Below, one piece after another: positions 1,616 to 43,922 of a DNA stretch of 64,000 nucleotides; within the stretch, counting starts at the first letter, position 1, and the number at the start of each line of letters is the position of its first letter. The position numbers and the translations under genes are program-made. Origin of the DNA: an uncultured Methylomirabilota bacterium (GTDB lineage: Bacteria; Methylomirabilota; Methylomirabilia; Methylomirabilales; 2-02-FULL-66-22); assembly GCA_963705305.1 (NCBI GenBank), contig OY970067.1, forward strand, positions 2,976,001 to 3,040,000, given 5' to 3'. Under the pieces are notes generated by a model. The model was not told the origin of the DNA. It ran no database searches and saw only the letters and a list, made by a program, of their open reading frames with translations.

Positions 1616-1644
1616 ATCATATGTGATCCGGGCTGTCCTGTCAA
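1616..1644 (-). promoter_or_regulatory. sigma70-type promoter of the marR-ABC operon
   Basis: Minus strand TTGACA (1644-1639)-N17-TATGAT (1621-1616). Confidence 0.75.
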
Positions 1645-1658
1645 GAGGTGGGGTGCTC

Positions 1659-3178
1659 CCCTAATCTCCGGCTAAGAAGTTGAGGGGGATCGCGAATCAC
1701 GCAGCGGCCCGCAGTGCGCGCGGCCCGCGGGGTTGGCATCGGCCTTGCTTGGTTTCACCCAGTGGGTGCAAACACCACAAGGAGGAGAGCGATGCCCGAC
1801 ACCTCGCCCCGGTTGCCGTTCGAGATCGATGACGCGATCGACCCCACGCTGGTCACGGGCCGGGCCGGGGTCCCGCTCGTGATCGAGCTGTTCCGCCAGC
1901 TCGGGGTGGCCCAGGCCGTCGACACCCACGTTGCGGTCAAGCAGCGGCAGCGCGGATTACCCCCCTCGCAGCTCGTGGAGAGTCTCGTCGCGTTGTGGAC
2001 GAGCGGCGGGGACCGCTGCCAGGACCTCACGACGCTCCGGGAGGATCAGGCCCTGGCCACGCTGCTCGGCTACCCCCTGCCGGCCGCGACCACGGTCCGG
2101 GACTTCCTCGAGGCCTTCCACGTGGAGGACGGGCCGCTCTGGGTGGCCGGGCCCGCGGCCACGGTCCCCCTGGAGTCCGCCCCCTTGGCGGGCCTCGGAC
2201 AGGCGAACCGGACGCTGGTCGCGGGCGTCCAGCGCGGGGCCCGGGCGGCGACGGCCACCCTGGATGTGGACGCGACGCTCGTCGAGAGCCACAAGGACGC
2301 GGCGACCGTGGCCTACGACGGGACCCGGGGCTACCAGCCCGTCGTGGTCCTCTGGGCCGAGCACGATGTCATCGTGCACGACCAGTTCCGCGATGGCCAG
2401 GTGCCCGCCGGGTGCGGCAACGTGCGCGTCCTCGAACAGGCGGTGGCCAACTTGCCCCAGGGCGTGGACCGCATCTCCCTGCGGGCCGACAGCGCCCTCT
2501 ACGAGACGGAGGTCCTCCGCTGGTGCGAGGAGAAGAAAATCGCCTACGCGATTAGCGCCGATATGTCCGCGCAGCTCCAGGCCGAGATCCGGCGCCTCCC
2601 CGCGGCCGCCTGGCAGCTCGAGCGGGAGGAGCCCGAGGCGATCCGGGCCTGGGCCGAAGTCCCCTACGTCCCCGAGGATGGCGATCACCGGAAGGCGCGG
2701 CCGTGCGTTCGCCGCTACCTCGCGGTGCGTATCCAGCGACGCCAGGGGAGCCTCTTCGCCGACGGGAGTAGCGTGCAGTACTTCGCCGTGGTCACCAATC
2801 GGCCGGAGGATGGGCTCACGATCCTCCGGTGGCACCGGGAGAAAGCAGGGACCATCGAGCACACCCATCACGTCCTCAAGACCGAGCTGGCGGCCGCCGC
2901 GCTGCCCAGTGGGAAGTTCGGGGCGAACGCCGCCTGGTTCCGGCTGAACGTGCTCACCTACAACCTGCTCACCGCGCTCAAGCGGTTGACCTTACCCGGA
3001 GATCTCCGGACCGCCCGGCCGAAGCGTCTCCGGTTCCTGCTGTTCAACACCGTCGGGAAGGTCGTCGCGCATGCCCGACGGACGCTCTTGCGGCTCTCGG
3101 GCGCCCTGCAGCACGCCTTGCTCGTCCGGGCGCGGCGCAAGATCGCCCGGCTGGCCACCGCTTAGCCGGAGATTAGGG
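1659..3178 (+). mobile_element. IS1380-family insertion sequence, copy 1 (1520 bp)
   Basis: Perfect 18-bp terminal IRs CCCTAATCTCCGGCTAAG / CTTAGCCGGAGATTAGGG; 5-bp target duplication TGCTC (1654-1658, 3179-3183); single DDE transposase. Confidence 0.93.
1792..3165 (+). CDS. IS1380-family DDE transposase
   Basis: Motifs TLDVDAT, GYQP, LRADSA and HREKAGTIEHTHHVLK...LPSGKFGANAAW. RBS AGGAGG precedes ATG 1792. The stop lies inside the right IR. Confidence 0.9.
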   Translation: MPDTSPRLPFEIDDAIDPTLVTGRAGVPLVIELFRQLGVAQAVDTHVAVKQRQRGLPPSQLVESLVALWTSGGDRCQDLTTLREDQALATLLGYPLPAATTVRDFLEAFHVEDGPLWVAGPAATVPLESAPLAGLGQANRTLVAGVQRGARAATATLDVDATLVESHKDAATVAYDGTRGYQPVVVLWAEHDVIVHDQFRDGQVPAGCGNVRVLEQAVANLPQGVDRISLRADSALYETEVLRWCEEKKIAYAISADMSAQLQAEIRRLPAAAWQLEREEPEAIRAWAEVPYVPEDGDHRKARPCVRRYLAVRIQRRQGSLFADGSSVQYFAVVTNRPEDGLTILRWHREKAGTIEHTHHVLKTELAAAALPSGKFGANAAWFRLNVLTYNLLTALKRLTLPGDLRTARPKRLRFLLFNTVGKVVAHARRTLLRLSGALQHALLVRARRKIARLATA

Positions 3179-3183
3179 TGCTC

Positions 3184-3333
3184 CCTTAATCTCCGGCTAA
3201 CGTCGCAGGCCGGTAGCGCACATGAGTCGCGCCCGCATTCATGGCTGCGGGGCCGGCTGCCCGCCTCGGACCTGGTCGCACCCGACGGGTGGCGCCCCGT
3301 AGAGGCGATGCACAGGTTAGCCGGAGATTTGGG
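3184..3333 (+). mobile_element. 150-bp MITE with IS1380-type ends, copy 1
   Basis: Ends CCTTAATCTCCGGCTAAC / GTTAGCCGGAGATTTGGG closely match the IS IRs; flanked by TGCTC on both sides (3179-3183, 3334-3338); second copy at 43730-43879. Confidence 0.9.
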
Positions 3334-3340
3334 TGCTCCT

Positions 3341-3369
3341 TTGACAAATGCCCCGGGGGGCCGTATACA
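3341..3369 (+). promoter_or_regulatory. sigma70-type promoter upstream of the peroxiredoxin
   Basis: TTGACA (3341-3346)-N17-TATACA. Confidence 0.55.
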
Positions 3370-3549
3370 TGGGAAGGCTCAACCGGGCGAATCCCTCCGG
3401 CAACCGCCTGGCGAAGGACGTTGCCGGACGGCAGAAAGCATTGCGAGCGCGGCCACGCGCGCCGCGGTTCCCGGGCGGGATCGGCGATTCGCGGCCGGAG
3501 CGGGCGGTCACAGACGGCAGCGCCAGGGGGCCGCTCGCGGAGAATGCTC

Positions 3550-4059
3550 ATGGCTATCACGGTTGGCGATCGGCTCCCCGACGGGACGCTCTTGGAATGC
3601 ACCGAGTTCGACCCTGCCACGGCGTGCCCGATCAACCCGGCGAGAATCAGTGTCGCAGAGGCGGCCAAGGGCAGGAGGATCGTGATCGTCGGTGTTCCCG
3701 GTGCGTTCACCCCGACGTGCTCGGCCAGGCATCTGCCCGGTTACGTGCGGAACTACGCTATGCTGAAGGCCAAGAAGGTGGACGAGATCTGGTGCGTGGC
3801 GGTCAACGATGCCTTCGTCATGGCGGCCTGGGGCCGCGAGCAGCAGGCCGCGGGAAAGGTCCGCATGCTGGGGGACGGCAGCGCGGCCTGGGCCAGGGCG
3901 CTCGGCCTCGAGCTCGATCTGGCCTCTCGCGGAATGGGGGTGCGGATGCAGCGTTTTTCCATGCTGGTCGAAGACGGCGTGGTCAGGCGGCTCAACGTCG
4001 AGGCCCCCGGCAAGTTCGAGGTCAGCGACGCCGAGAGCATGCTCGATCATCTCGGCTGA
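3550..4059 (+). CDS. Peroxiredoxin (Prx5-like)
   Basis: VPGAFTPTCS..HLPGY motif and VNDAFVM; GGAG RBS before ATG 3550. The upstream extension in the ORF track is MITE-derived. Confidence 0.93.
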   Translation: MAITVGDRLPDGTLLECTEFDPATACPINPARISVAEAAKGRRIVIVGVPGAFTPTCSARHLPGYVRNYAMLKAKKVDEIWCVAVNDAFVMAAWGREQQAAGKVRMLGDGSAAWARALGLELDLASRGMGVRMQRFSMLVEDGVVRRLNVEAPGKFEVSDAESMLDHLG

Positions 4060-4159
4060 GCCGGAGCAAGGCGATCTTCGCCCGTTTCCGCTTACCCCCG
4101 CGGGCGGGAAGCCGGCTCAGCGGAGGCCGGCACACGCGGGGACGCCGGAGCGAGGGCCG

Positions 4160-5230
4160 TCAGCCGCGGAGGCGGGCCAGCTCGCCGTCGATCACCCGCT
4201 TGAACTCCTCGAACGGCTGGGCCCCTGAAAGTATCTGCCCGTTGATGAAGAAGGCCGGCGTGCCGTCCACCCCCGCCCGCTCGCCGGCCTGCAGATCCTC
4301 CTTGACCCGCGGGGCCATCCGGCCGCTGTCCAGGCACGCGTCGAACTTCGGCCCGTCGAGGCCGATCTGTCGCGCGTCGGCCTTGAGGTCGGCGATGGCC
4401 AGCCGGTCCTGATGGCCGAAGAGCATATCGTGCATCTGCCAGAATTTGCCCTGCTCTCCGGCGCAGCGGGCGGCCTCGGCCGCCTTCTCCGCATGCTCGT
4501 GGATCGAGAGCGGGAAGTCCCTGAAGACCAGCCGAACCTTGTCCCCATATGTCCTCAGCACCCGCTCGATGGTCGGATTGGCCTGGGCACAGAACGGGCA
4601 CTGGAAATCCGAGAACATGACGATCGTCACGGGGGCGTTGGCGGGACCGCGGGCCGGGCCGATCGCCGCCACGTCCACGCGCGGCGGCTCCGGCCGGGGG
4701 AGCGTCACCTCCACCCGGGCCGCGGTGCGGAGGCTTGCCTCATATTCCCGGAGGCGCTGGTCCCGGTTTTGGTCCTGGAGGTACTTGCGCAATCGATCCC
4801 GAATCTGCTCGAAAGGGCCGGGCATCTGCTGGGCGTGGGCCTCGTAGAAGCTCTTGACCTCGGCCTCCGTGACGGCGGGCGTCTTGTCGTCGACCTCGGT
4901 CTTGAGGAGCGCGTCCTCGGACGCGCCGCGACGGCGGGCCTCTGCCCTCAGAAGCATCGTATTGATCATCTCGTCCAGACCGGTCTGGCGGATGGTGTAC
5001 TCTTGCTCCGCCCGCTGCCGCTCGAGCTCCTTGAGCTGTCCCTCCACTGATCGATCCAGCGCTTCCAGGGTGATCGTCTCGCCGCCGACCCGCGCAACGA
5101 CCGTTGGGGGAACGGGTGTCAACGCGGACTGCAAGCCGTTCCCAACATGGGGGTAGGCGCTGCAGCCAACCAGCGCCAGCGCAGCCGCCGCTGCGCCCAG
5201 CAGCGCAACAGGATTCCGTTTCCCTTGCAT
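4160..5230 (-). CDS. DsbA/thioredoxin-fold lipoprotein with SurA-like N-terminal region
   Basis: Lipoprotein signal (LVGC), FSDFQCPFC active site, GTP cis-Pro motif. Start about 5230-5236; the 671-aa track ORF is over-extended. Confidence 0.85.
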   Translation of the reverse strand: MQGKRNPVALLGAAAAALALVGCSAYPHVGNGLQSALTPVPPTVVARVGGETITLEALDRSVEGQLKELERQRAEQEYTIRQTGLDEMINTMLLRAEARRRGASEDALLKTEVDDKTPAVTEAEVKSFYEAHAQQMPGPFEQIRDRLRKYLQDQNRDQRLREYEASLRTAARVEVTLPRPEPPRVDVAAIGPARGPANAPVTIVMFSDFQCPFCAQANPTIERVLRTYGDKVRLVFRDFPLSIHEHAEKAAEAARCAGEQGKFWQMHDMLFGHQDRLAIADLKADARQIGLDGPKFDACLDSGRMAPRVKEDLQAGERAGVDGTPAFFINGQILSGAQPFEEFKRVIDGELARLRG

Positions 5231-5298
5231 GGACATTCCCTCGTGGCTCGGTTTCTCTAGCACCGTCTCGGCGGCCGTCCCGCCCAGGCGCCGACCAA

Positions 5299-6183
5299 CT
5301 ACGCCCGCGGGTGGTACTTGTCGTAGACGGCCTTGAGGTGCGCTCGGCTGAGGTGCGTGTAAATCTGGGTGGTGCCGATGTCGGCATGGCCCAGCATCAA
5401 TTGGACCGATCGAAGATCCGCCCCGCCCTCCAAGAGGTGAGTGGCAAAGGAGTGACGCAGCGTGTGGGGGGTCACCGGCTTGGTGATCCCGGCCGTGCGT
5501 GCGGTGCGCTTCAGCAGTTGCCAGAACATCTGGCGGGTGAGGCCGCGGCCGTGCCGGCCCAGAAAGAGATGGGCGCTGGCGCGGGGCCTCTCCAGGGCCG
5601 GACGGCTGCGACGAAGATAGAGGCGAAGGCTCTCGGCCGCGGCGTCCCCCAGGGGAACCAGCCGCTCCTTGCCCCCCTTGCCCACCACGCGGACGATCCC
5701 CGCAGCCAGATCCAGATCCGAGAGGCGGAGGCCCACCAGCTCGGAGACGCGAAGGCCGGAAGCGTACGTCAGCTCCAGCATGGCCCGGTCCCGGATTCCT
5801 TGGGGAGTGGGCGGCATCGGCACCTCCAGGAGGCGCGACACGTCGTCGCTGCTGAGCACGCCGGGCAGGCGCCGCCAGGGCCGCGGGGACTCCAGGTGGG
5901 CGGTTGGGTCCTGGGTCGCGTGCCCCTCGCGCACCATGAAGCGGTGGAACTGTCGGATCGCCGACAGGTGCCGGGTGACGGAGCGCGGACTCAGTCCCGC
6001 CTCGCGAAGCAGCAACAGGTACCGGGGGACCTCCGCTCGGTCCAGAGCCATGGCCTGTTTCCGCCGGGTCCGCAGGTACCCCGTGTACCTCACCAGATCG
6101 CGCCGGTATGCCTCCAGGGTGTTCTGGGCCAGGCCTCGCTCCACCACCAGATGATCCAGGAACGCTTCCAGGCATCGGTCCAC
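5299..6183 (-). CDS. xerD: Tyrosine recombinase XerD
   Basis: ERGLAQNTLEAYRRDL, GLRVSEL, GKGGKERLVP, TPHTLRHSFATHLL, QLMLGHADIGTTQIYTH, YHPRA C-terminus; GTG start. Confidence 0.93.
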   Translation of the reverse strand: MDRCLEAFLDHLVVERGLAQNTLEAYRRDLVRYTGYLRTRRKQAMALDRAEVPRYLLLLREAGLSPRSVTRHLSAIRQFHRFMVREGHATQDPTAHLESPRPWRRLPGVLSSDDVSRLLEVPMPPTPQGIRDRAMLELTYASGLRVSELVGLRLSDLDLAAGIVRVVGKGGKERLVPLGDAAAESLRLYLRRSRPALERPRASAHLFLGRHGRGLTRQMFWQLLKRTARTAGITKPVTPHTLRHSFATHLLEGGADLRSVQLMLGHADIGTTQIYTHLSRAHLKAVYDKYHPRA

Positions 6184-6212
6184 AGGCGGTCGCCTCCGTC
6201 CGCAGGGCGCGT

Positions 6213-7376
6213 TCAGACGGGGTGCGGTCCGACGGGCGCCTCGAGGAGCTCGCGATACACGGCCAGCAGCCGCTCGGCGCACCGCTCGGGTGTGAACTCG
6301 GCGGCGACCTGCCGCCCGGCCTCCGACATGGCCTGCCGCCGGTCTGCCTGGCCCCAGAGCGTCACGACGGCCCGGGCAAAGGCGCCCGGATCCTCGGGCG
6401 CCAGCAGACCGCTCCGGCCGTCTCTTAAGAGATCCAGGGCCGCCTCGGAGGTTACGGCCACAACCGGGAGGCCTGCGGCCAGAGCCTCCAGGGCCACCAG
6501 CCCCTGCGTGTCGGACGTGGACGGGAACAAGAACACGTCCGCCGCCAGATAATACCCTGGTATAGCCTCATGAGGAACGCTCCCGACGAACTCTACGGCC
6601 TGTGTCAGGCCGAGATCGGCCGACAGCCGCTCCAGGCGGGAGCGATCATCCCCCTCCCCCACCAGGATCAGACGGGCGGTCGGCACGGCCCGCCGGACCA
6701 GCGCGAAAGCGGCCAGGAGGAACGCCAGGTTCTTCTCGCGGGCCAACCGGCCCACGCAGAGGCAGAGCGGGCTGCCGCCGTCCAGGTGCAAAGCCAGACG
6801 CCGCTCCGTGCGGTTCCCTCTGCCGGCCTGTGCAACGGGGGGCACGCCGGTGGGGAGGATCTCGATCCGGCTCTGAAGCCCCCGCGCCCGGAGATCGCGC
6901 GCCACCGACGGCCCGGGCGCGATGACCAGATCCGCGCGGGCTGCGAAAGCCAGGGCGCGGCGGAGCGCCAGCCGGGCCAGCAGCTGGGTCGGCCCCGGCG
7001 CGTAGTGGGCATACCGATCATAGCGGGTGTGATATGTGAAAACCAGGGGCCGAGCCGCCTGGCGGGCCCATCGGCCTGCCGCCGCTCCGAGGAGGAACGG
7101 GTGCTGGGCGTGGTAGATGTCGAGCCCCAGGCTGCGGACCGCCCTCGCCGTCCCGGGCCAGCGGGGGAACGGGAGCCGGTAGGCATGGTGGGTGGGGGTG
7201 CGACAGGACGGCACCCGCAGCACCGCCATCTCCCGCCGGGGAGCCTGTGGGTAGCGGGGAGCGACCACGATGGCCTCGTGGCCCTTCTGCCGCAGGGCGC
7301 GAGCCGTCGTCTCCACCGAAGTGGCCAGACCGTTGACCAGGGGCCGGTAATTATTGGTGAACAGACCGATCCGCAT
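6213..7376 (-). CDS. GT4 glycosyltransferase (diacylglycerol glycosyltransferase-like)
   Basis: MRIGLFTNNY..NG N-terminus, VGRLAREKN, DTQGLVALEA. Confidence 0.88.
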   Translation of the reverse strand: MRIGLFTNNYRPLVNGLATSVETTARALRQKGHEAIVVAPRYPQAPRREMAVLRVPSCRTPTHHAYRLPFPRWPGTARAVRSLGLDIYHAQHPFLLGAAAGRWARQAARPLVFTYHTRYDRYAHYAPGPTQLLARLALRRALAFAARADLVIAPGPSVARDLRARGLQSRIEILPTGVPPVAQAGRGNRTERRLALHLDGGSPLCLCVGRLAREKNLAFLLAAFALVRRAVPTARLILVGEGDDRSRLERLSADLGLTQAVEFVGSVPHEAIPGYYLAADVFLFPSTSDTQGLVALEALAAGLPVVAVTSEAALDLLRDGRSGLLAPEDPGAFARAVVTLWGQADRRQAMSEAGRQVAAEFTPERCAERLLAVYRELLEAPVGPHPV

Positions 7377-7430
7377 CCGATCCGCGCACGTCCTCCGGTC
7401 CGCCCACCTGCCGATCTGACGGCGTGGAGG

Positions 7431-9116: not shown

Positions 9117-9130
9117 GGCTGAACTCCACA

Positions 9131-9592: not shown

Positions 9593-9747
9593 TCCGCGGA
9601 CCCCCGGGGAGAAACCCGTCTTTCCCGGAGCGGAACTATAGCAGAAAAAGGGTTCGGCCGTGCGCAGAAATTGCGCTGACCGGACAGAGCAAGAGTCGGC
9701 ACCAGGCAAGGGGAGCGGTGGCCCGGGACCGCGAGCCCGGGCGCAGA

Positions 9748-11775
9748 TCAGGAGGCCGGATCGACGAGGTGGAGTTCCTGCCCGGGACGGATGGCGGCAT
9801 CCTTGGAGAGTTTGTTCCAGCGCCGGAGGTCCTCGGGCGAGACCCCAAAGGCTTGCCCGATCTCCCAGAGGGTGTCACCCTGCTTGACCACATACCGCCG
9901 CTTGGCAGCCGGGCGGGAGGACGAATGTCGGACAGGCGCGGCAGGTGTCCGAACAGCAGCCGCCTGAATCTCTGCAGGGGAGACGACCAGCAGTGTCTGC
10001 CCGGGACGGAGAGCGGCATCCCTCGAGAGCCTGTTCCAGCGCCGGAGATCGTTCAGCGAGACGCCAGAGCTCTTGGCGATCCACGACAGTGTGTCCCCCG
10101 GCCTCACCACGTATGTGCGCCCGGCGTGGCGCACCGGCGCAGCCGAGGGGGCGGTCCGGGTTGCCTTCGCCAGCGCGACCGTCCCGCTTTCAGCCGAGGA
10201 GGGAATGCGCAGGAGCATGCCCACCTTCAGAGCCTGGCGCTTGCCGAGGCCGTTCATCTCCGCGAGCGCCTCCGGATCGACCCGGTACTGACGGGCAACA
10301 CGACGAAGCGTCTCCCCCTTGCGGACCCGGTGGGTCGCCCACCGGACGCGCTCCGCCGGTGGGATGCGCGAGATGGCTTCCAGGAACGTCTCCGTGCGTC
10401 CGGCCGGGATGCGGAGGGAGTAGCGCGAAACATCCGGGGGAGTCGTCCCGCGGGTCAACTCAGGATTTAACTCCCGGATCCGTTCGACGGACGTGCCGGC
10501 AGCCTGCGCCGCGATCTTCAAATCGGTGGGGTGCAAGAGCCGAACCGTCTCACTTTCCAGGCCCTTTTCCGGTGGCACGGAAAACCCATACCGCTCGGGG
10601 TAGTGGGAGATGAGGGTCATGGCCATGATCGCCGGCACGAAGAGCTTGGTCTCCCTGGGAAGCTTGAGCGACCAGAAATCGCGCGTGCGCTGCCGCTGGA
10701 TGGCCCGCTGCAGCGCCCCCTCCCCGAGATTGTAGGCGGCGAGAGCCAGGGGCCATGAATCGAACATTTCGTGAAGCGTCTTCAAATACTCGGCCGCGGC
10801 GCGGGTGGATTTTTCGGGGTCGCGCCGTTCGTCCAGCCACCAGGAGGTGTGCATCCCGAAGAGGCGGGCCGTCGAAGGAATAAACTGCCAGATGCCTGCC
10901 GCCTTGGCCCGAGAGGTGGCGTGCGGATTCACGGCGCTCTCGATGAAGGCCAGGTTGGTGAGCTCTTCCGGCAGCGCCTTCTCCTGAAAGATCCGGCGCA
11001 TCATCGGGAGATACCGGCTGGCCCGCTCGAACGCCTGGGTGATGACGCCCCACTTGCGGGTCTGGAAATACTCCAGGAAGGACTCCACCTCATCGTTGAG
11101 GATGATAGGAAATTGCGATCCCTCCACCTCGGTTCCGACGTCCGGGGCCTCTTTTTCCTTGGCCGGGGCCTCGGTCACGGCCTGAATGTCGTCCGGTCCC
11201 AGCAGCGCCGGGGCGTCCAGTGGCGGCTCCTCGGCCGCGGTGGAATCGGAGTCGTCGGCCGACGAAGACGGCGATGCGACGTTTGTCATCGGCGCCGCCA
11301 GCTCCCTCACCCAGCTGGATGGAGGAAAGCTCACGGGACGCGTGACCGCTGCCAATCCGGCCGGGGGAGCGTAGACCGGATTGGTTGTCAGGAGAGTCTC
11401 CAGGGCGGCGTCGAATTCCCATTCGGCCTGATCGGCATCGCCGCTCTGCATCGCCTGGAGTCCGCGCTGGTAGTACGAGGTTGCGCGTCCCATGGCGACG
11501 GTCAGCGCCGCGGGCCCGGGCGGGGCCGCGGGGGCGGGGGCCGCGGCCGATCCGGGGCTGGTGATGGGAGCTGGGGGCGGGCTGCCGGAAGGCGATCCGA
11601 ACTGCAGGGTCCATTCGACTCCGCTCGAGAGCTCGCGACCCCGCGCCAAATCGGTGCGCTGCAAGGGGGACAGCCCCGAGACGGGAGACGTTGTCGCGCA
11701 TCCGGCGAGCAGGCTGGCCAGGAGGGCACACCACAGAAAGCTCAGGGGTCCAGGAGGTTGCCGAACCGGCATCAA
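9748..11775 (-). CDS. Lytic transglycosylase with three LysM domains (MltD-like lipoprotein)
   Basis: Lipobox LAGC; SLT motifs IES, AAGIWQF, LAAYNLG; three LysM repeats. Confidence 0.9.
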   Translation of the reverse strand: MMPVRQPPGPLSFLWCALLASLLAGCATTSPVSGLSPLQRTDLARGRELSSGVEWTLQFGSPSGSPPPAPITSPGSAAAPAPAAPPGPAALTVAMGRATSYYQRGLQAMQSGDADQAEWEFDAALETLLTTNPVYAPPAGLAAVTRPVSFPPSSWVRELAAPMTNVASPSSSADDSDSTAAEEPPLDAPALLGPDDIQAVTEAPAKEKEAPDVGTEVEGSQFPIILNDEVESFLEYFQTRKWGVITQAFERASRYLPMMRRIFQEKALPEELTNLAFIESAVNPHATSRAKAAGIWQFIPSTARLFGMHTSWWLDERRDPEKSTRAAAEYLKTLHEMFDSWPLALAAYNLGEGALQRAIQRQRTRDFWSLKLPRETKLFVPAIMAMTLISHYPERYGFSVPPEKGLESETVRLLHPTDLKIAAQAAGTSVERIRELNPELTRGTTPPDVSRYSLRIPAGRTETFLEAISRIPPAERVRWATHRVRKGETLRRVARQYRVDPEALAEMNGLGKRQALKVGMLLRIPSSAESGTVALAKATRTAPSAAPVRHAGRTYVVRPGDTLSWIAKSSGVSLNDLRRWNRLSRDAALRPGQTLLVVSPAEIQAAAVRTPAAPVRHSSSRPAAKRRYVVKQGDTLWEIGQAFGVSPEDLRRWNKLSKDAAIRPGQELHLVDPAS

Positions 11776-22964: not shown

Positions 22965-23780
<816 letters not shown>

Positions 23781-23799: not shown

Positions 23800-23828
23800 T
23801 TTATAGCCTTGCGTCGGGTGGAAGTCAA
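23800..23828 (-). promoter_or_regulatory. sigma70-type promoter of the proC operon
   Basis: Minus strand TTGACT (23828-23823)-N17-TATAAA (23805-23800). Confidence 0.7.
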
Positions 23829-23842
23829 GCCTCTCCGAAGCG

Positions 23843-25362
23843 CCCTAATCTCCGGCTAAGAAGTTGAGGGGGATCGCGAATCACGCAGCGGCCCGCAGTG
23901 CGCGCGGCCCGCGGGGTTGGCATCGGCCTTGCTTGGTTTCACCCAGTGGGTGCAAACACCACAAGGAGGAGAGCGATGCCCGACACCTCGCCCCGGTTGC
24001 CGTTCGAGATCGATGACGCGATCGACCCCACGCTGGTCACGGGCCGGGCCGGGGTCCCGCTCGTGATCGAGCTGTTCCGCCAGCTCGGGGTGGCCCAGGC
24101 CGTCGACACCCACGTTGCGGTCAAGCAGCGGCAGCGCGGATTACCCCCCTCGCAGCTCGTGGAGAGTCTCGTCGCGTTGTGGACGAGCGGCGGGGACCGC
24201 TGCCAGGACCTCACGACGCTCCGGGAGGATCAGGCCCTGGCCACGCTGCTCGGCTACCCCCTGCCGGCCGCGACCACGGTCCGGGACTTCCTCGAGGCCT
24301 TCCACGTGGAGGACGGGCCGCTCTGGGTGGCCGGGCCCGCGGCCACGGTCCCCCTGGAGTCCGCCCCCTTGGCGGGCCTCGGACAGGCGAACCGGACGCT
24401 GGTCGCGGGCGTCCAGCGCGGGGCCCGGGCGGCGACGGCCACCCTGGATGTGGACGCGACGCTCGTCGAGAGCCACAAGGACGCGGCGACCGTGGCCTAC
24501 GACGGGACCCGGGGCTACCAGCCCGTCGTGGTCCTCTGGGCCGAGCACGATGTCATCGTGCACGACCAGTTCCGCGATGGCCAGGTGCCCGCCGGGTGCG
24601 GCAACGTGCGCGTCCTCGAACAGGCGGTGGCCAACTTGCCCCAGGGCGTGGACCGCATCTCCCTGCGGGCCGACAGCGCCCTCTACGAGACGGAGGTCCT
24701 CCGCTGGTGCGAGGAGAAGAAAATCGCCTACGCGATTAGCGCCGATATGTCCGCGCAGCTCCAGGCCGAGATCCGGCGCCTCCCCGCGGCCGCCTGGCAG
24801 CTCGAGCGGGAGGAGCCCGAGGCGATCCGGGCCTGGGCCGAAGTCCCCTACGTCCCCGAGGATGGCGATCACCGGAAGGCGCGGCCGTGCGTTCGCCGCT
24901 ACCTCGCGGTGCGTATCCAGCGACGCCAGGGGAGCCTCTTCGCCGACGGGAGTAGCGTGCAGTACTTCGCCGTGGTCACCAATCGGCCGGAGGATGGGCT
25001 CACGATCCTCCGGTGGCACCGGGAGAAAGCAGGGACCATCGAGCACACCCATCACGTCCTCAAGACCGAGCTGGCGGCCGCCGCGCTGCCCAGTGGGAAG
25101 TTCGGGGCGAACGCCGCCTGGTTCCGGCTGAACGTGCTCACCTACAACCTGCTCACCGCGCTCAAGCGGTTGACCTTACCCGGAGATCTCCGGACCGCCC
25201 GGCCGAAGCGTCTCCGGTTCCTGCTGTTCAACACCGTCGGGAAGGTCGTCGCGCATGCCCGACGGACGCTCTTGCGGCTCTCGGGCGCCCTGCAGCACGC
25301 CTTGCTCGTCCGGGCGCGGCGCAAGATCGCCCGGCTGGCCACCGCTTAGCCGGAGATTAGGG
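23843..25362 (+). mobile_element. IS1380-family insertion sequence, copy 2 (transposase 23976-25349)
   Basis: Same length, IRs and translated ORFs as 1659-3178; 5-bp TSD AAGCG (23838-23842, 25363-25367). Confidence 0.93.
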
Positions 25363-25718
25363 AAGCGCCCGAGCCCGTGGGCCCGATCCTTGGGCGAGGG
25401 CGCGGTATCCCCGATATCCTTGTCTGGCGATCGCGCCCAAGCGGGCAGCAGCGGCGTCGATTCCGTCGCACGCCGTCGCCGCTGCCCGTTCGCCGTGCGG
25501 AGGAGGCGGTCGGCCACGCCCTGGGACGTCCGGGGACCGTCGGGAGCACGTCGCCGGTGGCCATCGGGAAAACTTGCGGGTGCGAGGGCGCTTGGGGTAT
25601 ACAAAGAGCGCCTGCATGCCGCAGCATGCAGGATTTCCCAGGCCTCCCGCCTCGTGATTCGCAGCAGGCGTACGGCGAGGGTCGGGGAGATCTACAACCT
25701 TCGCGGAGGGAGGTTCGG

Positions 25719-34876: not shown

Positions 34877-34881
34877 ACAAA

Positions 34882-36839: not shown

Positions 36840-37102
36840 GCGCCGGCGCGTCCCCTTCAAGGAATCTCGCAACCCTCGAGCAAGACTGCGCCGGGCGTGC
36901 CGCTGCCGATCGACACGGCCCCGGGGAGACGAGCGCAGACCGGATCCTTCGGGGAGTGCCGACCGGCCTGAACGGAGATGGCGGCCCGCGCGGAATCGAA
37001 GCGGTCTCCTCTCCCGAGGGAGTTGGACACCGGTCCTCGCCGTGGGCAAACCTTCTCTCGCAGGGAAGCGGGAGGCGTCCGGAAAAAAGGGGTGGAGACC
37101 GA

Positions 37103-38323
37103 ATGAAGGCCTGCCAGACAGAGACCGCAGCTTCTGACACATCTCCCAGGGCCGGGTTGGGGCGCAATGTGCTCGCCTTGGGGTGGGTGGCGTTTTTCGG
37201 CGGCCTCGCCCAAGACATGATCCTGCCCGTGCTGCCGGTGTTCTACACGAGCGTGCTGGGCTTGCGCACGGAATTCATCGGGATGATCGAGGGCGCAGTG
37301 ACGACGGTCGTCAGCCTCGCCCGGATCGGGGCGGGCTATCTCTCCGACGCGCTGGGACGGCGCAAGGCGATTGTTTTCCTCGGGTACGGGCTCTCAGCCC
37401 TGGGGCGCGTCGGTCTCGGGGTCGCGGGGTCGGGGGGAGCGGTCTTGGGACTCCGCCTGAGCGACGGCCTGGGCAAGGGCTTGAAGGACGCCCCGCGCGA
37501 CGCGCTGGTGGCCGGGTCGGCCGGCGACCGGACCCTGGGGTTCGCCTTCGGGGTGCAGCGGACCCTCGACACCCTCGGCTCGGTGATCGGCCCGCTCCTC
37601 GCCTTCGTCTTTCTGAAGGTCTGGATGGACCAGCCAGCCCCCACCTATCACGCGCTGTTTCTGCTGGCGGGAGTCGTGGCCGCGATTCCCCTGGGGATCA
37701 TCGGCGGGTTCGTCCGCGAGCGGCGCACGGCGGTCACGAAGCAGCCGCTCTCCTTGCGCGTGCTCCGGGGACCCTTTGCCAGATTCTTGGCGGTCGTGCT
37801 GTTGTTCACGCTCGGGAACTCCTCGGACGCGTTTCTCATCCTGCGCGCCCAACGGGTGGGCGTGCCGGTCGCGCTCATCCCTATCGTGTACGCCGTGTTC
37901 AACCTGGTCTCGGCCCTCGCGGCCATCCCGGCGGGACGGCTCGCCGACCGCGTCGGCCGGCGGCGGGTCATCGGGTATGGCTGGGCCGTGTACGCGCTGG
38001 CCTACCTGGGATTTGCGCTGGCGACCGCCCCGTGGATGATCTGGGGGCTCTATGCGTTCTATGGGCTCTTCTACGCGCTGACGGAAGGCTCGGCCAAGGC
38101 GTTAGTGGCCGAGTTGGTTCCGGATGCCAGTCGGGGGGCGGCCTACGGCCTGTACAGTGCCGCGACTGGCATCATGGCACTCCCGGCCAGTGTGGTCGCG
38201 GGGGTCCTGTGGGATCACATCTCGCCCGCGGCCCCCTTTGCCTTCGGTGCCGCCCTGGCCGCGGCCGCGGCGGTCGGGCTGAAGCTCGTGCCACACGTGG
38301 CGTTGGGCGAGAGTCACAGCTAG
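37103..38323 (+). CDS. MFS transporter
   Basis: Motif A GYLSDALGRRK and GRLADRVGRRR; multiple TM segments. Confidence 0.92.
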   Translation: MKACQTETAASDTSPRAGLGRNVLALGWVAFFGGLAQDMILPVLPVFYTSVLGLRTEFIGMIEGAVTTVVSLARIGAGYLSDALGRRKAIVFLGYGLSALGRVGLGVAGSGGAVLGLRLSDGLGKGLKDAPRDALVAGSAGDRTLGFAFGVQRTLDTLGSVIGPLLAFVFLKVWMDQPAPTYHALFLLAGVVAAIPLGIIGGFVRERRTAVTKQPLSLRVLRGPFARFLAVVLLFTLGNSSDAFLILRAQRVGVPVALIPIVYAVFNLVSALAAIPAGRLADRVGRRRVIGYGWAVYALAYLGFALATAPWMIWGLYAFYGLFYALTEGSAKALVAELVPDASRGAAYGLYSAATGIMALPASVVAGVLWDHISPAAPFAFGAALAAAAAVGLKLVPHVALGESHS

Positions 38324-38676
38324 CGCTCACCGAAAAGGAGATAGGCCCGAAAGCCAAGATCAGGGCCACGGTGGTCTGCAAAACACTCTGGCTGCCCGGC
38401 CATTCGAGCGGAGAATGTGACCGTAACTCCTCATCAACCAGCGATACGCCTTCCGGCCGTCGGAGCAAGTCATGCCAGCCAGAACCACGCGCCCAACGTT
38501 GGTGTCGATCCCCCGGCACCATTCGAGTCCAACAATAGAGACGAGCAGGATCCGAGGGCTGAAGTAGCCCGCCCCACCTCAAGGTCAATTCCCGCCGCCT
38601 ACCCCTCGGAGATCGAATCCACCGTTCCATTCTGGGACCGCCCCCTGAGACAGAACCCTCGTGTTCAAGTCCCGCC

Positions 38677-38770
38677 TGGCTCCCCGGGTAGGACTCGAAT
38701 CCGCCTGCGGCGGATTTCGGCTGGTGCCTCAACCCAACCTAGCGGTTAATCCGCCGACGGCGGACTCGCT
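38677..38770 (-). pseudogene. tRNA-Asn-like 3' fragment interrupted by hairpin insertions (att remnant)
   Basis: Minus strand ...TTAACCGCTAGGTTG-[insert]-TTCGAGTCCTACCCGGGGAGCCA. Confidence 0.6.
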
Positions 38771-38880
38771 CCATGTTTAGCAACCTGTAGAATAAGGTAG
38801 TTACAACATTCGAGAAGGTCGGTGGCGGTTTCAGTGGCGGTTCATTTTTCCCTGAGCGAGCCATTTCGGTTTATCGGGAA

Positions 38881-39606
38881 TCACAGGATGAACACCGGCT
38901 CCACCCCATGCCACAGGCACAGCCGAATCAGCTTCCCCATCCCCCGGGGGTGCGCCGGGCTCCCGTAGAAGCAGAGCTCGTTGTCCACCTGTTCGAACTT
39001 CGGGATCCCCAACCGGCGCCAGAGCGCCCAAAGCCCGGGGACCACGTCCGCCTTGCCCGCCACCACGGGCTGCACCCCGCACCGCTTGGTGGTCACATCC
39101 AAGCGATGGAGACTGTGGAACCGCAGCCCCCCGCGCAGGTAGCACGGGCCCACGAAGTCGCTCTGGTGCACATCGTTCGGACGGACCGCGGCGAGCCGCG
39201 GGTAGGCCACCCCCTTCGGGGCGTAGTGGCCGGTGCGGCGATGCGCCAGCTCGTGCCGCACCAGGATGCGGCCGATCGTCCGTACCGACGGCAGCGGCTG
39301 GACCGCCAGATCCGTGAGGCGCCAGCGAATGGCTTGGGCGCCACAGAACTGGGCCGGGTTGTACAGCTCCAGCCGGACGAGCTGGACGATCTCCTCGATC
39401 TCGGCCGGGGGCCGGCCCGACTGGGTGTGCGGTCGCCGCGAGTCGTCCTGAAACCAGGTGGCCGTGTCGCGGGTGTGGCGCACCCACCACTTGTACAGCC
39501 AGCTCCGCGAGACCCGGTCCGACAGACAGATGACCGTGAAGGCTTCGCCCTGCAGCAACCGCTCGACCGCGCGCTTCCGCCGCTCTGCCCAGGTGGTCGT
39601 GTCCAT
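38881..39606 (-). pseudogene. Truncated IS481/IS3-like transposase
   Basis: HTH, HQSDFVGP, QVDNE; ends at VFIL before the expected catalytic Glu region. Confidence 0.75.
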
Positions 39607-39933
39607 GCGCCTTTCCTCCCATGTAGGAACAGAAGCGCATCCTGGACCTCACCGGCTCCGCAACGAAGCGTGCAGGATGCTCAGGTCGTTCACGATCTCC
39701 TGGCACCTTTTGGCGTTCACGATGTAGCGGCACTTGTCACCTTGGTGCTGTAAGACCGTATTGTGTTATGATCCCGCTGCCTCGTTCGGGGGTGTCCGTT
39801 GCGAAACGCCTCAGCGCTGGCTGACACGGCGCTGACAAAATCCCGTGGTGAAGAATGTCGGGAAGGGATACCGGCTCTTGCGTAAGTGATTGCAGTTGAA
39901 CCTTGGGTATTCGGCGTGATGGGGTGGAACCGC

Positions 39934-39979
39934 CTTCACGCGGCGGAGGTCACTGGTTCGATCCCAGTAGCGCCCACCA
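39934..39979 (+). repeat. att site: duplicated 3' end of tRNA-Val
   Basis: CTTCACGCGGCGGAGGTCACTGGTTCGATCCCAGTAGCGCCCACCA, 45/46 match to 34831-34876. Confidence 0.93.
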
Positions 39980-39991
39980 TGCAGCAGGCCA

Positions 39992-40020
39992 GGGGTTGGG
40001 GGTCTCCCCAGCCCCGTTTT
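39992..40020 (+). terminator. Terminator after att (probably the original tRNA terminator)
   Basis: GGGGTTGGGG-GTCT-CCCCAGCCCC-GTTTT. Confidence 0.65.
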
Positions 40021-40121
40021 ACTTTCACGGCTCCGGCCGCGAGCTCCGTCCTCCCCGCCCGACATCCGTCTCCGTTCCCTTCCGCTTCGCCGCGACCCGG
40101 ATTCTTGGTGACCCCTCCGCG

Positions 40122-41069
40122 CTACGGGGTGAGCCAGTCGAAGATCCGCTCCCGCGCCTCGCGGATGCCCAGGTGATCCACGAGGGGAGCGGTGGGGCCC
40201 CCCGTCAGGCCGCCCGCGATCACCGCGGCCCCCAGGGCCGCCTCGTAGCCGTCGCCCGATGCCAGGGTGAGTGCGCCGGGCAGGCGGCCCTCCAGGGCGC
40301 TGGACGCTTCGAATCGCCGATCGCCCGTGATGACGACCGCCGGAAGGCGGTGGCATCCGAGGAAGGCCAGCGCCTCCTTCTCCACAGCTTCCCAGTGGGC
40401 CCTGAGACCGCTGCCCGGGGCCAGCGCCTCGGCCTCGCCGCCGGTGCCGCGGCGCCACTTGGCCGCGGGCCCCAGGCTGGTGAGGAGCCGCTGGCGTCCT
40501 GCGGCAGCGGTCGCCCCCAAACCGCCGGCGGTTCCGCCGATGCCGTCCACGATGCGTCCGGCGCGGACAGCGAGGATGGTCCTGGCGTCGGCCGCGACGT
40601 GGAGCAGGAGGAAATCGGAACCAGCCGGGGCCTGGCCGGAATGCTGCAGCCAGTGGATGGTCCAGACCGCGGCGCACAGGGCCTCCGCCGCCCCGAGGTC
40701 CACCCGGCCGAGCTTACGGTGGAGGGGAATCGAGGGGAGCAGCTTCACAGAGGGAATGCAGAAGGCCCGCGGCGCCCGCCGCCGCGCCTCGTCCAGAAAC
40801 TCGGCCAGCGTCCGGCCGGGCTCTCCGCCGGACAGGATCGTCATCTCCGAGATGTCCTGGTCCAGAAGATCCCGGGCGCGCATCACCGGGACGCCGAACC
40901 CCGAGGGAAGCACCATCGGTGTGGCGGGGTTGGCCCCCAGCACGTCTTCGATGAGATCCCAGAGAGGAGCGACCTGGGCGTAGCTCCGCAAGTCGACGGC
41001 GCGGTCCTCGTCCCAGAGGGCCGCCCGCCATTCGCCGCTGTCCTGAAAATCGAGTCCGAGCGAGCGCAT
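40122..41069 (-). CDS. DUF1464-like protein
   Basis: LPSGFGVP, IPSVKLLPSIPLHRKLGRVDLG, AVRAGRIVDGIGGT recall DUF1464; recognised from memory, not searched. Confidence 0.6.
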   Translation of the reverse strand: MRSLGLDFQDSGEWRAALWDEDRAVDLRSYAQVAPLWDLIEDVLGANPATPMVLPSGFGVPVMRARDLLDQDISEMTILSGGEPGRTLAEFLDEARRRAPRAFCIPSVKLLPSIPLHRKLGRVDLGAAEALCAAVWTIHWLQHSGQAPAGSDFLLLHVAADARTILAVRAGRIVDGIGGTAGGLGATAAAGRQRLLTSLGPAAKWRRGTGGEAEALAPGSGLRAHWEAVEKEALAFLGCHRLPAVVITGDRRFEASSALEGRLPGALTLASGDGYEAALGAAVIAGGLTGGPTAPLVDHLGIREARERIFDWLTP

Positions 41070-41294
41070 AGGCTTGAAGGAACCCGAGAAACGCGTGGGG
41101 CCAGTCTAGCGATTTCCTCTCCGCGGAGCAAGTGCGGGACGTTCCGGGGTGAAAAATCTGCGCTCCGGGTGAGGAAGACGGTTGACCCAAAGAGAACCTC
41201 GTGGCATGCTCGCTTCGGAGTGGCGAAGGTGCGCACCGGTTGCCGACGACCGGTGTCGGGTGCGGCGGCCCGTTAGAGAAAAGGGAGGCGGTGC

Positions 41295-42518
41295 ATGCGG
41301 GAGCGGATCGGAGGGGCGTCCGGCTGGACGGAAACACTGTGGCGCGAGGCACGGCGACTGGCGGTGGTCGCATTGGTCCTGGCTCTTACCGTGCTCTCGA
41401 CCGGAGAGCCGGCCCTGGCCGCGCGACATCGGCCGCGGCCGGCAAGGGTGTCGGGGCCGGCGAAGGTGTCGGGACCGACGACCTCGTCCTGGATCGTGAT
41501 CAATGCGGACACTGGCGACGTGCTGAGCAGCCAGGACCCCGATCGCCCCGGCGCCCCCGCCTCCATGACAAAAATGATGCTGGCCCTCCTGGTGATGGAG
41601 GCCGTCAAGGATGGCCAGCTGAAGCTGTCGGACCCGGTCCAGACCAGCGCCCGGGCGAGCAGAATGGGAGGCTCCCAGGTCTACCTCAAACAGGGGGAGA
41701 CCTTCAGCGTCGATGAGATGATGGCCGCCCTGCTCATCGGTTCGGCCAACGATGCCGCGGTGGCCCTGGCCGAACGCCTGGCCGGAACCGTGGAAGCCGC
41801 CGTGGCCCGCATGAACGAGCGGGCGGCCGCGCTCAAGCTGACCCAGACCCACTTCAGCTCGGTCCACGGGCTGCCGCCGGCGCCCGGACAGTCCGGGGAC
41901 GTCACCACGCCCCAGGATATGGCCCGGCTGTCCCAGGAGCTTCTCAAATACCCCGACATCCTCCGCTGGACCTCCACGCAAGACGCCCCGTTCCGCGGGG
42001 GGAGCTTCATCCTACAGAACAGTAACCACCTGATCGGCCATTTCCCGGGGGCCGACGGCTTGAAGACGGGGCACTTCCACCAGGCGGGCTACAACGTCAC
42101 GGCGACGGCCAAGCGGGGGAGTCTGCGCCTCGTCGCGGTGGTGATGGGGGCGCCCACCAATCGGGCGCGGTTCACCGAGGCGGCCCGTCTGCTGAGCGAG
42201 GGATTCGCCCGCTACGTCGAGGTGACCGTGGCGAAGGCCGGGTCGCCGGTGGGAGACGCGGTGCGGCTTCCGCGGGCGAGGAGCGCCTTCCGGCCGGTGG
42301 TCACCACGGATGTGCAGGTGTACGTGAAGCGGGAGGAGAGCGACGCCGTCAAGGCCGCCGTCCAGATGGCCAGCGGCCTGCGGGCCCCGATGCACAAGGG
42401 TCAGCCGGTGGGAACGCTGGTCGTTCGCCTGGGCGATCGCGAGCTGTCCCGCGTGCCGGTCGTGACGCCGGCGCCCGTTCCACGGGCGTTCTTCTGGTGG
42501 GTGACCCCGTGGCGGTAG
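41295..42518 (+). CDS. D-alanyl-D-alanine carboxypeptidase (S11, PBP5-like)
   Basis: ASMTK (SxxK), SAN (SxN), KTG; PBP5 C-domain. Confidence 0.93.
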   Translation: MRERIGGASGWTETLWREARRLAVVALVLALTVLSTGEPALAARHRPRPARVSGPAKVSGPTTSSWIVINADTGDVLSSQDPDRPGAPASMTKMMLALLVMEAVKDGQLKLSDPVQTSARASRMGGSQVYLKQGETFSVDEMMAALLIGSANDAAVALAERLAGTVEAAVARMNERAAALKLTQTHFSSVHGLPPAPGQSGDVTTPQDMARLSQELLKYPDILRWTSTQDAPFRGGSFILQNSNHLIGHFPGADGLKTGHFHQAGYNVTATAKRGSLRLVAVVMGAPTNRARFTEAARLLSEGFARYVEVTVAKAGSPVGDAVRLPRARSAFRPVVTTDVQVYVKREESDAVKAAVQMASGLRAPMHKGQPVGTLVVRLGDRELSRVPVVTPAPVPRAFFWWVTPWR

Positions 42519-42677
42519 CGGGGGCAGACCCGCCAGGACCGCGCCGCCGGCTCCAGCTGCAGCACCGGCGAGGGGAGGTCGAGGGATTGTGTTGTGGGCG
42601 CTCTCTGCGCCCGTTATAATGTCACCAGCTTCGGGCAACAGATGCGGCGTCGCCGGAAACCGCGCGGGACTGAGGAG

Positions 42678-43463
42678 ATGTGGTCGGTGCTGATCTCCAT
42701 GTTGTACCGCCTGTACGAGCGGCGGCTGAAGGCCGAGCTCCAGCGGTGGCCCCTGCCCCGCCATATCGGCCTGATCCTGGACGGGAACCGCCGCTTCGCG
42801 CGGTGGATGGGGCTGCGCGATGTGATCCAAGGTCACGAGCGGGGCGCCGCAAAGCTGGAGGAGGCCCTGGGGTGGTTTGAGGAGCTGGGGATCCAGATGG
42901 TCACCATCTGGATCCTGTCCACGGAGAACCTGGGACGCACTCCCGAAGAGCTGGAAGGGCTGCTCTCCCTCATCGAGCGGCGGATGCGGCAGACGGCCGC
43001 CGACCCGAAGATTCACCAGCGCCAGGTGCGGATCCGAGCCATCGGCAAGCTGGAGCTCCTTCCCGATTCATTGCGCGAGGCCATCCGGATCGCCGAGGAG
43101 GCCACCGCCGACCACGATCATTTCTCCCTGAATGTGGCGGTGGGATACGGCGGGCGGCAGGAAGTGGTGGATGCCGTCCGGGGGATCCTGGCCGACTGGG
43201 GGCACCAGGGGCTGACGCCGGCCGAGATCGCCGATCGCCTGACGGCGGACGTGATCGGGAAGTATCTCTACACCTATGAACTGCCCGACCCCGATCTCAT
43301 CATCCGCACCAGCGGCGAGGTGCGGCTGAGCGGTTTCCTCCTCTGGCAGAGCGCATACAGCGAATACTACTTCTGCGACGCCTACTGGCCCGCCTTCCGC
43401 AAGATCGATCTTCTGCGCGCCATCCGCAGCTACCAGCAGCGCCAGCGCCGCTACGGGCGGTAG
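42678..43463 (+). CDS. cis-prenyltransferase (UppS family, short-chain-like subtype)
   Basis: HIGLILDGNRR, LSTEN, YGGRQE, IRTSGEVRLSGFLLWQ. Confidence 0.92.
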   Translation: MWSVLISMLYRLYERRLKAELQRWPLPRHIGLILDGNRRFARWMGLRDVIQGHERGAAKLEEALGWFEELGIQMVTIWILSTENLGRTPEELEGLLSLIERRMRQTAADPKIHQRQVRIRAIGKLELLPDSLREAIRIAEEATADHDHFSLNVAVGYGGRQEVVDAVRGILADWGHQGLTPAEIADRLTADVIGKYLYTYELPDPDLIIRTSGEVRLSGFLLWQSAYSEYYFCDAYWPAFRKIDLLRAIRSYQQRQRRYGR

Positions 43464-43729
43464 CGGCGCTGGCGCTGCCCCCAGATTGCGAACGCCGCAG
43501 GCCGAGATCAGGACCCCCGGGTTCCCGGTGAGGCCGCGGGCCCGGCAGACGTTGAAGAATCCCTCCCCTTTGACCGTGAACAGCTCGGCGGACTCGGGGT
43601 CGTAGCCGTGGAGGAGAGCATAGAGTCAGGGGCCTCCCAGGAGGACGCCCCTGACCTCCAGAGGGGTCGGCTCCGGCTCCAGAGTGACCCTGCTTGATCA
43701 CCCGGAGATGGTCGCCGCTGGGCGCACGC

Positions 43730-43879
43730 CCCAAATCTCCGGCTAACTTGTGCATCGCCTCTACGGGGCGCCACCCGCCGGGTGCGACCAGGTCCGAGGC
43801 GGGCAGCCGCCCCCGCAGCCATGAATGCGGGCGCGACTGATGTGCACTACCGGCCTTCGACGTTAGCCGGAGATTAAGG
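43730..43879 (-). mobile_element. 150-bp MITE, copy 2 (inverted)
   Basis: Reverse complement of 3184-3333 with 6 substitutions by eye; TSD CACGC (43725-43729, 43880-43884). Confidence 0.9.
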
Positions 43880-43893
43880 CACGCGCTGAGCCA

Positions 43894-43922
43894 TTGATTT
43901 CATCCCGTTGTCTGGGTAGACT
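43894..43922 (+). promoter_or_regulatory. sigma70-type promoter upstream of shc
   Basis: TTGATT (43894-43899)-N17-TAGACT (43917-43922). Confidence 0.6.

Follow-up and report, generated by a model that had tools for sequence, protein, structure and literature searches.

The window analysed here comprises 64,000 nucleotides of an uncultured Methylomirabilota bacterium (assembly GCA_963705305.1, contig OY970067.1, positions 2,976,001 to 3,040,000), and contains two copies of an insertion sequence (IS) of the IS1380 family as well as two copies of a miniature inverted-repeat transposable element (MITE), which occupy three insertion sites upstream of predicted sigma70-type promoters. IS copy 1 (1659–3178, plus strand) is 1520 bp long, is bounded by perfect 18-bp terminal inverted repeats (CCCTAATCTCCGGCTAAG) and has a sole open reading frame (ORF; 1792–3165), which encodes a transposase of 457 amino acids. 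IS copy 2 (23843–25362, plus strand) is identical to it and is flanked by the target site duplication (TSD) AAGCG at 23838–23842 and 25363–25367. MITE copy 1 (3184–3333, plus strand; 150 bp) abuts IS copy 1 via a common TGCTC, and MITE copy 2 (43730–43879, minus strand), which is 96% identical to it, has the TSD CACGC at 43725–43729 and 43880–43884.

At site 1, the sequence outside the left inverted repeat (IRL) of IS copy 1, which starts at 1659, consists of the TSD TGCTC (1654–1658), 9 nt and the hexamer TGTCAA (1639–1644). Read on the minus strand, this hexamer is the −35 box TTGACA of a promoter (1616–1644) with the −10 box TATGAT (1616–1621) after a 17-bp spacer, and a MarR-family gene lies downstream (1108–1584, minus strand). 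Site 2 has the same layout, with AGTCAA at 23823–23828, 9 nt, the TSD AAGCG and the IRL of IS copy 2 at 23843, and the corresponding minus-strand promoter (23800–23828; −35 TTGACT at 23823–23828, −10 TATAAA at 23800–23805) precedes a gene for pyrroline-5-carboxylate reductase (proC; 22965–23780, minus strand). At site 3, where the MITE lies on the minus strand, its end at 43879 is followed by the TSD CACGC, 9 nt and TTGATT (43894–43899), the −35 box of a plus-strand promoter (43894–43922) with TAGACT (43917–43922) as its −10 box, and the gene downstream encodes a squalene-hopene cyclase (shc; 44052–46028, plus strand). An initial annotation of this DNA had drawn attention to these three sites, and its reading was confirmed on the letters, namely the hexamer, the 14-nt gap (the 5-bp TSD and 9 nt), the −10-like boxes 17 bp beyond the −35 boxes and the presence of real genes behind all three promoters.

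Site 1 had also been described as hit twice, and this holds: the order is IS, TGCTC and MITE, and the presence of TGCTC in three copies (1654–1658, 3179–3183 and 3334–3338; strand not applicable) indicates that the site was used twice. A second, divergent promoter, belonging to a peroxiredoxin-like gene, was detected to the right of the MITE at this site (3341–3369), with TTGACA and TATACA separated by 17 bp. As its hexamer starts only 8 nt from the MITE end, 2 nt past the TSD, this promoter is not the targeted one.

From its profile matches and predicted fold, the transposase is assigned to the IS1380 family, and thus to the DDE enzymes of the IS4/Tn5 type and not to those of the Mutator type. 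It matched the NCBIfam model of the IS1380 family (NF033539) with 268.1 bits against a cut-off of 180, over profile positions 8–416 of 419, and the Pfam domains PF13701 (135 bits) and PF01609 (E=4e-7). A Pfam scan at E≤10 gave no additional DNA-binding, helix-turn-helix or sigma-like domain and no Mutator-type match. An AlphaFold model, built on 14 relatives (a further relative, L058, whose frame has two stops, was left out of the protein alignments), reached a predicted local distance difference test value (pLDDT) of 72.8 and a predicted template modelling score (pTM) of 0.77; the nearest fold was that of Tn5 transposase (1muh; E=6e-9, template modelling score 0.48), with a nearly full-length alignment. 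A sequence search of solved structures yielded no relative of the transposase. Members of the IS1380 family, such as ISEcp1, IS1247 and ISPme1, are expected to have one ORF between terminal repeats that begin with CC, and a short TSD of 4–5 bp. The element described here fits this layout with its single ORF of 457 codons, its perfect 18-bp repeats and TSDs of 4–6 bp, mostly 5 bp.

The genome consists of one contig of 5.65 Mb with 66% G+C, in which 27 IS copies and 12 full MITE copies were counted (individual copies are referred to below by their genome positions). Over the 1520 bp of the IS, 20 of the 27 copies are 100% identical, five are 98.3–99.9% identical, one is 85% identical and one is broken up by another small element. 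The counts exclude a half MITE (77 nt, 1832610–1832686) and two short IS-like fragments (2526738–2526829 and 4774289–4774372), and three tandems of an IS and a MITE were merged, giving 36 independent sites. The TSD was 5 bp in 28 of the 39 copies, 6 bp in six, 4 bp in one, 3 bp in one and absent from three, with the 12 full MITE copies accounting for 11 of 5 bp and one of 6 bp. The copies with no matching duplication are all IS copies (1882227, 3158055 and 4904323) and may be products of recombination between copies. The similarity between MITE and IS is confined to the terminal repeat core (AATCTCCGGCTAA). The MITE nevertheless has the features of a derivative of the IS: it is short, non-coding and multicopy, and it has the common repeat core, the same TSD length and the same target geometry. 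The IS/MITE pair is apparently active. One DNA sequencing run carries 25% of the sequence words, and its contigs include the MITE/flank junction at window positions 43854–44025, unchanged, as well as a chimeric contig running through MITE copies.

To describe the insertion sites across the genome, flanks were read outward from both element ends, with the offset defined as the position outside the end at which the hexamer starts, and 200,000 random genome positions served as background. Exact TTGAC was found at offset 14–16 at 18 of the 36 sites, compared with 0.35% in the background (binomial P=6e-35), and TTGAC with at most one mismatch at 27 of the 36, compared with 6.5% (P=5e-25), so that element end and hexamer are 14 bp apart (range 13–15) at 27 sites. 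In a positional scan, exact TTGAC occurred 14 times at offset 15, three times at 16 and once at 14, with three occurrences in total elsewhere in offsets 1–50. The offset tracks the length of the duplication: among copies with at most one mismatch, a TSD of 5 bp goes with offset 15 (n=17), one of 6 bp with offset 16 (n=5) and one of 4 bp with offset 14 (n=1), the lone exception being one copy with a TSD of 6 bp and offset 15. What stays constant is therefore the distance of 9 nt that separates the hexamer from the promoter-proximal cut.

Over the 36 sites, the flanks yield both a phased −35 motif and an enriched −10 signal. The first reads C-T-T-G-A-C-a, with counts of 32, 33, 35, 31, 24, 27 and 16 of 36, and the second consists of A at the second position of the −10 box (22/36) and G two bases upstream (20/36). 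The earlier statement that spacers and TSDs have no obvious consensus mostly stands, apart from the C before the hexamer and a weak preference for C at the two TSD-adjacent bases (19/36 and 21/36). An IS and a MITE occupy one common 5-bp target at three sites. In the two tandems with the hexamer at offset 15 (IS 2977659 and IS 2597956) the IS is the promoter-proximal element, and the third (IS 1180010, upstream of ftsH) has a poor −35 box, with TATACT outside the IS at the place expected for the −10 box. This arrangement is as expected if the promoter-proximal copy of the TSD stays a target.

Genes were predicted with an in-house dicodon-based caller, which gave 5077 genes after element-borne calls were dropped, covering 80% of the genome. 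Despite this high coding fraction, 34 of the 36 sites are intergenic, and a co-directional gene start lies within 300 bp of the hexamer at 29 of 36, as against 1053 of the 2047 intergenic TTGAC occurrences in the genome. Pfam matches were obtained for 25 of the 33 downstream genes scanned, and these genes include FtsH, Glu-tRNA synthetase (GltX), TypA/BipA, TatC and regulators of the MarR, MerR, AsnC and DtxR types. It should also be noted that one targeted promoter (genome 1288486–1289856) drives a transposase gene of the ISL3 family (Pfam PF01610), such that one mobile element lies upstream of the promoter of another.

The −10 box was scored strictly, as TAnnnT at a spacer of 16–18 bp. This was present at 16 of the 36 sites, compared with 5.8 expected from intergenic sites with the same six bases (C/N and the first five of the hexamer; P=1e-5), or 8.3 when the expectation was limited to sites upstream of genes (P=0.002). 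The excess was concentrated in the sites without exact TTGAC, where a phased TAnnnT was found in 10 of 18, against 0.66–1.26 expected (P=8e-11 and 3e-8). At sites with an 18-bp spacer the hexamer is still located at offset 15, and the insertion point is therefore tied to the −35 side. Weak −35 boxes are thus accompanied by good in-phase −10 boxes, as in real promoters, a pairing that would be unexpected if the hexamer alone were read. The targeted sites are whole sigma70-type promoters, not hexamers alone.

Related elements have the same geometry in three phyla. In a scan of species-representative genomes, the closest proteins were found in metagenome-assembled genomes (MAGs) of Methylomirabilota (85%), followed by Nitrospira/Nitrospirota (about 70%) and Acidobacteriota (about 46%). 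Copies in same-genus genomes are 78–86% identical, and of nine full-length ones six have exact TTGAC at 13–16 on one side, two have TTGCGA or TTGTGA at 15 and one has none. A Nitrospirota MAG (70% identity) with eight usable copies gave two exact hexamers and five with at most one mismatch. In an Acidobacteriota MAG, an IS of 1819 bp present in 19 copies, with 46% protein identity and different repeats (CCCCGATCCGCCGATAA), again has a 5-bp duplication, 9 nt and a hexamer in succession, with exact TTGAC at 14–16 at 11 of the 19 sites, compared with a mean of 0.18 and a maximum of 1 in control windows. TAnnnT lies at offsets 37–40 at six of the seven weak-hexamer sites of this element. Of 14 singletons whose ends are confirmed by a TSD, four have the exact hexamer, seven have at most one mismatch and 11 have TTG at 14–16; one of these singletons is in a betaproteobacterial MAG, and two share their contigs with same-genus copies counted above. 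When TAnnnT was counted irrespective of orientation over 63 sites in three genomes, 20 were at offset 38, 10 at offset 39 and 0–3 at each other offset; by class of −35 box, a phased −10 box was present at 15 of 31 exact, eight of 13 one-mismatch and 11 of 19 weaker sites.

It could be argued that insertion is near random, with purifying selection leaving only the harmless copies upstream of promoters. Selection must indeed purge insertions in essential genes, and the intergenic position of 34 of the 36 sites agrees with this. Selection cannot, however, produce single-base phasing, with 14 exact hexamers at offset 15 and three in total outside 14–16, nor can it create the TAnnnT peak at offsets 38–39. 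In addition, the burst must be recent, as 20 of the 27 IS copies are 100% identical, leaving little time for selection to act, the same geometry recurs in three phyla, and three sites have each been hit twice at the identical 5 bp. An absence of targeting is thus regarded as extremely improbable, the least credible of the explanations considered.

The initial annotation had further held that the elements are inserted in fixed orientation, with the IRL always beside the promoter. This was suggested by the window, where the hexamer is found outside the end called IRL at all three sites, and MITE copies do lean the same way, with the hexamer outside the "IRL" in five and outside the other end in one of six (p=0.22). 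The "left" end of the MITE is a mere convention, however, because the MITE has no gene and only its terminal repeats are common to the IS. Of the 21 IS copies with TTGAC (at most one mismatch) at offset 14–16, 12 have it outside the IRL and nine outside the right inverted repeat (IRR; binomial p=0.66), and a count by eye in the Acidobacteriota relative placed the promoter beyond the left end in about 12 copies and beyond the right one in about seven. Either end can face the promoter, since the two ends of the IS are identical over 18 bp, a condition under which both orientations were also seen in other elements, according to Guerillot et al. (2014; PMC3942029). Oriented insertion is therefore very unlikely and the statement is wrong as it was worded. 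The promoter, on the other hand, always points outward, no matter which end of the element lies next to it.

As for what selects the site, the initial annotation had offered either guidance by promoter-bound RNA polymerase or readout of TCAA. The part of this proposal concerning the choice of a target a constant distance upstream of sigma70-type −35 boxes stands, and the phased −10 box favours the version with polymerase, although a contact between transposase and polymerase can itself only be inferred from the sequences. The best explanation for the data, in our judgement somewhat better than an even chance, is RNA-polymerase-guided insertion upstream of promoters by an active IS1380-family IS and its MITE. 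This is favoured over plain TCAA readout because of the phased −10 box at sites with poor −35 boxes, in 10 of 18 compared with about one expected.

Direct readout is nevertheless a serious rival. The transposase, or one of its DNA-binding parts, would here recognise cTTGAC on one side of the cut, at a distance of about 9 nt, and the link with promoters would follow since hexamers of this kind in accessible intergenic DNA are mostly −35 boxes, possibly aided by active promoters being open, supercoiled or protein-free. The strongest conserved positions are those of C-TTGAC, and insertion is anchored to the −35 box and not to the −10 box. Several further observations favour direct readout or otherwise weigh against guidance by polymerase. 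The hexamer is immediately preceded by C at 32 of 36 sites, compared with 56% among 371 promoter-like TTGAC sites of this genome. This excess may point to a sequence preference on the part of the transposase, and is less marked in the Acidobacteriota elements (about six of 12, by eye). Sites with exact TTGAC have no excess of TAnnnT (6/18, against 5.2–7.1 expected from matched intergenic TTGAC). At a few sites TTGAC lacks a recognisable −10 box or downstream gene, as predicted by direct hexamer readout, examples being MITE 1838744, located in a gene, and IS 1882227, with no co-directional gene within 9 kb. The fit is poor in general at four to five sites (among them MITE 44502, IS 5148181, IS 4479223 and IS 4287087), and the gene calls rest on a crude in-house caller and the promoters are predicted from sequence. 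Lastly, an IS1380-family element on a Kitasatospora plasmid (26% identical) had no TTGAC at 14–16 at three distinct sites, a count from which triplicated segments were set aside and in which the ends and TSD of the element are unclear, too few sites for a family-wide decision. Promoter targeting is probably a property of this clade and not of the whole family.

Direct readout has in turn to account for the phased TAnnnT at the sites without exact TTGAC, and at six of the seven weak-hexamer sites in Acidobacteriota. A protein which cuts at about −45 to −49 can hardly be expected to recognise a hexamer at a distance of 38 nt; nevertheless, where the −35 box is poor, the −10 box is present, which favours polymerase capture. 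Recognition on one side only would be unusual for a symmetric transposase dimer, and the Pfam scan at E≤10 gave no helix-turn-helix or sigma-like domain which could serve for it. Direct readout is accordingly held to be a good deal less likely than guidance by polymerase, while deserving real weight. A mixed model, in which hexamer readout is combined with a requirement for open, active DNA, is possible.

The IS and the 150-bp MITE with the same ends integrate by a staggered cut, mostly of 5 bp, whose promoter-proximal edge lies 9 nt upstream of the −35 hexamer, approximately at −45 to −49 relative to the transcription start. In the favoured explanation, that of polymerase capture, the transposase would not read the hexamer alone but would capture promoter DNA occupied by the sigma70 holoenzyme, anchored at the −35 box and sigma region 4. 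Insertion thus falls at the point of the promoter complex at which upstream DNA exits sigma region 4 and encounters the C-terminal domains of the alpha subunits. A structure prediction for the complex of the transposase (a same-genus copy) with sigma70 region 4 gave no answer (score 0.00) and is uninformative either way. The outcome would be a safe harbour in which genes and core promoters are spared and upstream regulatory DNA alone is displaced. This aspect of the initial annotation was borne out, as the promoters fire away from the element and core promoter and gene are intact.

Some further features of the genome were recorded. The gene for the housekeeping sigma factor, rpoD (genome 2734974–2735685), is frameshifted within region 4.2, with one frame ending in EEVGQQFERHP and a stop, and the remaining 30-odd residues of the helix-turn-helix that reads the −35 box continue in the next frame. 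Region 4.2 is in one frame in all 23 other genomes of the order with an rpoD-strength match, and the frameshift is probably a one-base assembly error in this single-contig assembly. A second MITE family of about 200 bp is present in 18 copies (one at genome 2845913–2846113) with a 9-bp TSD, and one of its copies lies inside an IS1380 copy. Its flanks suggest a palindromic target, with the TSD preceded by CYCCCC and followed by CTGGG; five copies are located just past an apparent tRNA 3′ end, and no linkage to promoters was seen. Within the window, a direct repeat of two 132-nt units, 73% alike and 219 nt apart, is found at 9763–10113.

It is established that three groups of elements with Mutator-like transposases, namely streptococcal TnGBS, the ISLre2 family and the ISKra4 group, insert 15–17 bp upstream of the −35 box of sigmaA promoters (Guerillot et al., 2014; PMC3942029). 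The targeting of TnGBS/ISLre2 (p-MULT 3) goes back to Brochet 2009 and Guerillot 2013, as cited there. In that paper, orientation depends on asymmetry between the repeats, elements with nearly perfect repeats occur in both orientations, and contact with the polymerase initiation complex was proposed by analogy with Ty3, likewise unproven. The novelty of promoter-upstream targeting implied by the initial annotation is thus not sustained. For IS1380 itself, which that annotation supposed to be undescribed in this respect, −35-linked target choice was not found in the full-text literature searched, including the passages on IS1380 of PMC9208149, PMC3281130 and an IS1202 preprint, with subscription literature and ISfinder/TnPedia outside the search. 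The over-representation of IS1380, like that of ISLre2, between co-oriented genes, as noted in PMC9208149, is explained by targeting of this kind.

The question of mechanism becomes sharper now that the same target upstream of promoters is seen for a second transposase superfamily of unrelated structure. Convergence of this kind speaks for a property of the polymerase-promoter complex rather than for a DNA-binding quirk of one family, with the phased −10 box at weak −35 sites as the direct sequence evidence. It is tentatively proposed, with slightly less than even confidence, that unrelated DDE lineages, namely the Mutator-like TnGBS/ISLre2/ISKra4 and this IS1380 clade, have independently learned to use one general landing pad, the DNA just upstream of a sigma70 holoenzyme bound at a promoter (about −45 to −50). 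The IS1380 transposase would dock on the holoenzyme by way of sigma region 4, the alpha C-terminal domain or bent upstream DNA, and would not read the hexamer. If this is true, comparison of the lineages would reveal a common polymerase surface. The small, apparently active IS/MITE pair with its Tn5-like enzyme offers a tractable system for testing the transposase-polymerase contact, and possibly a gene-sparing insertion tool. Elements of this type also mark real promoters in uncultured phyla (Methylomirabilota-like, Nitrospirota and Acidobacteriota) for which transcription start data are lacking.

The yeast retrotransposons Ty3 and Ty1, with which the initial annotation drew a parallel, are steered by the transcription machinery to integrate at a fixed place upstream of the transcription start. 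They differ from the present elements in being eukaryotic retroelements which insert at Pol III genes via contact of the integrase with TFIIIB or a Pol III subunit. The parallel is one of function alone, and the Ty3 analogy is also cited in PMC3942029. A closer resemblance exists to TnGBS and ISLre2, which are likewise DDE transposons inserted upstream of the −35 box of a housekeeping-sigma promoter at a set spacing (15–17 bp there and 14 bp here), with the promoter firing away from the element, the same safe-harbour logic with the Ty3 analogy, and a proposed contact with polymerase. The fixed distance is found here in the 13–15 bp between element end and hexamer at 27 of 36 sites and in the phased −10 box. 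The transposase superfamilies are unrelated: the Mutator-like (p-MULT) enzymes carry a signature motif between domains N1 and N2, and the transposase of this study, of the IS1380 and DDE_Tnp_1 type, has no Mutator-type Pfam match and a Tn5-like predicted fold. Most p-MULT 3 elements have one orientation with the IRr beside the promoter, whereas both orientations occur here, and their hosts are mainly Firmicutes instead of Methylomirabilota-like bacteria, Nitrospirota and Acidobacteriota; moreover, a MITE derivative with the same targeting is present here. The ISKra4 group (p-MULT 4) and ISLbu1 share near-perfect repeats (18/18 here) and promoters on either side, in line with the 12:9 split between the two ends observed in this genome, but have Mutator-like transposases and a weaker signal, with no MITE partner reported in the part of the source available. 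In its targeting the element works like TnGBS, ISLre2 and ISKra4, from outside their transposase families. The interpretation given in the initial annotation is right in kind, though not new in kind, and what sets the present case apart is the IS1380 (Tn5-like) enzyme together with its MITE partner.

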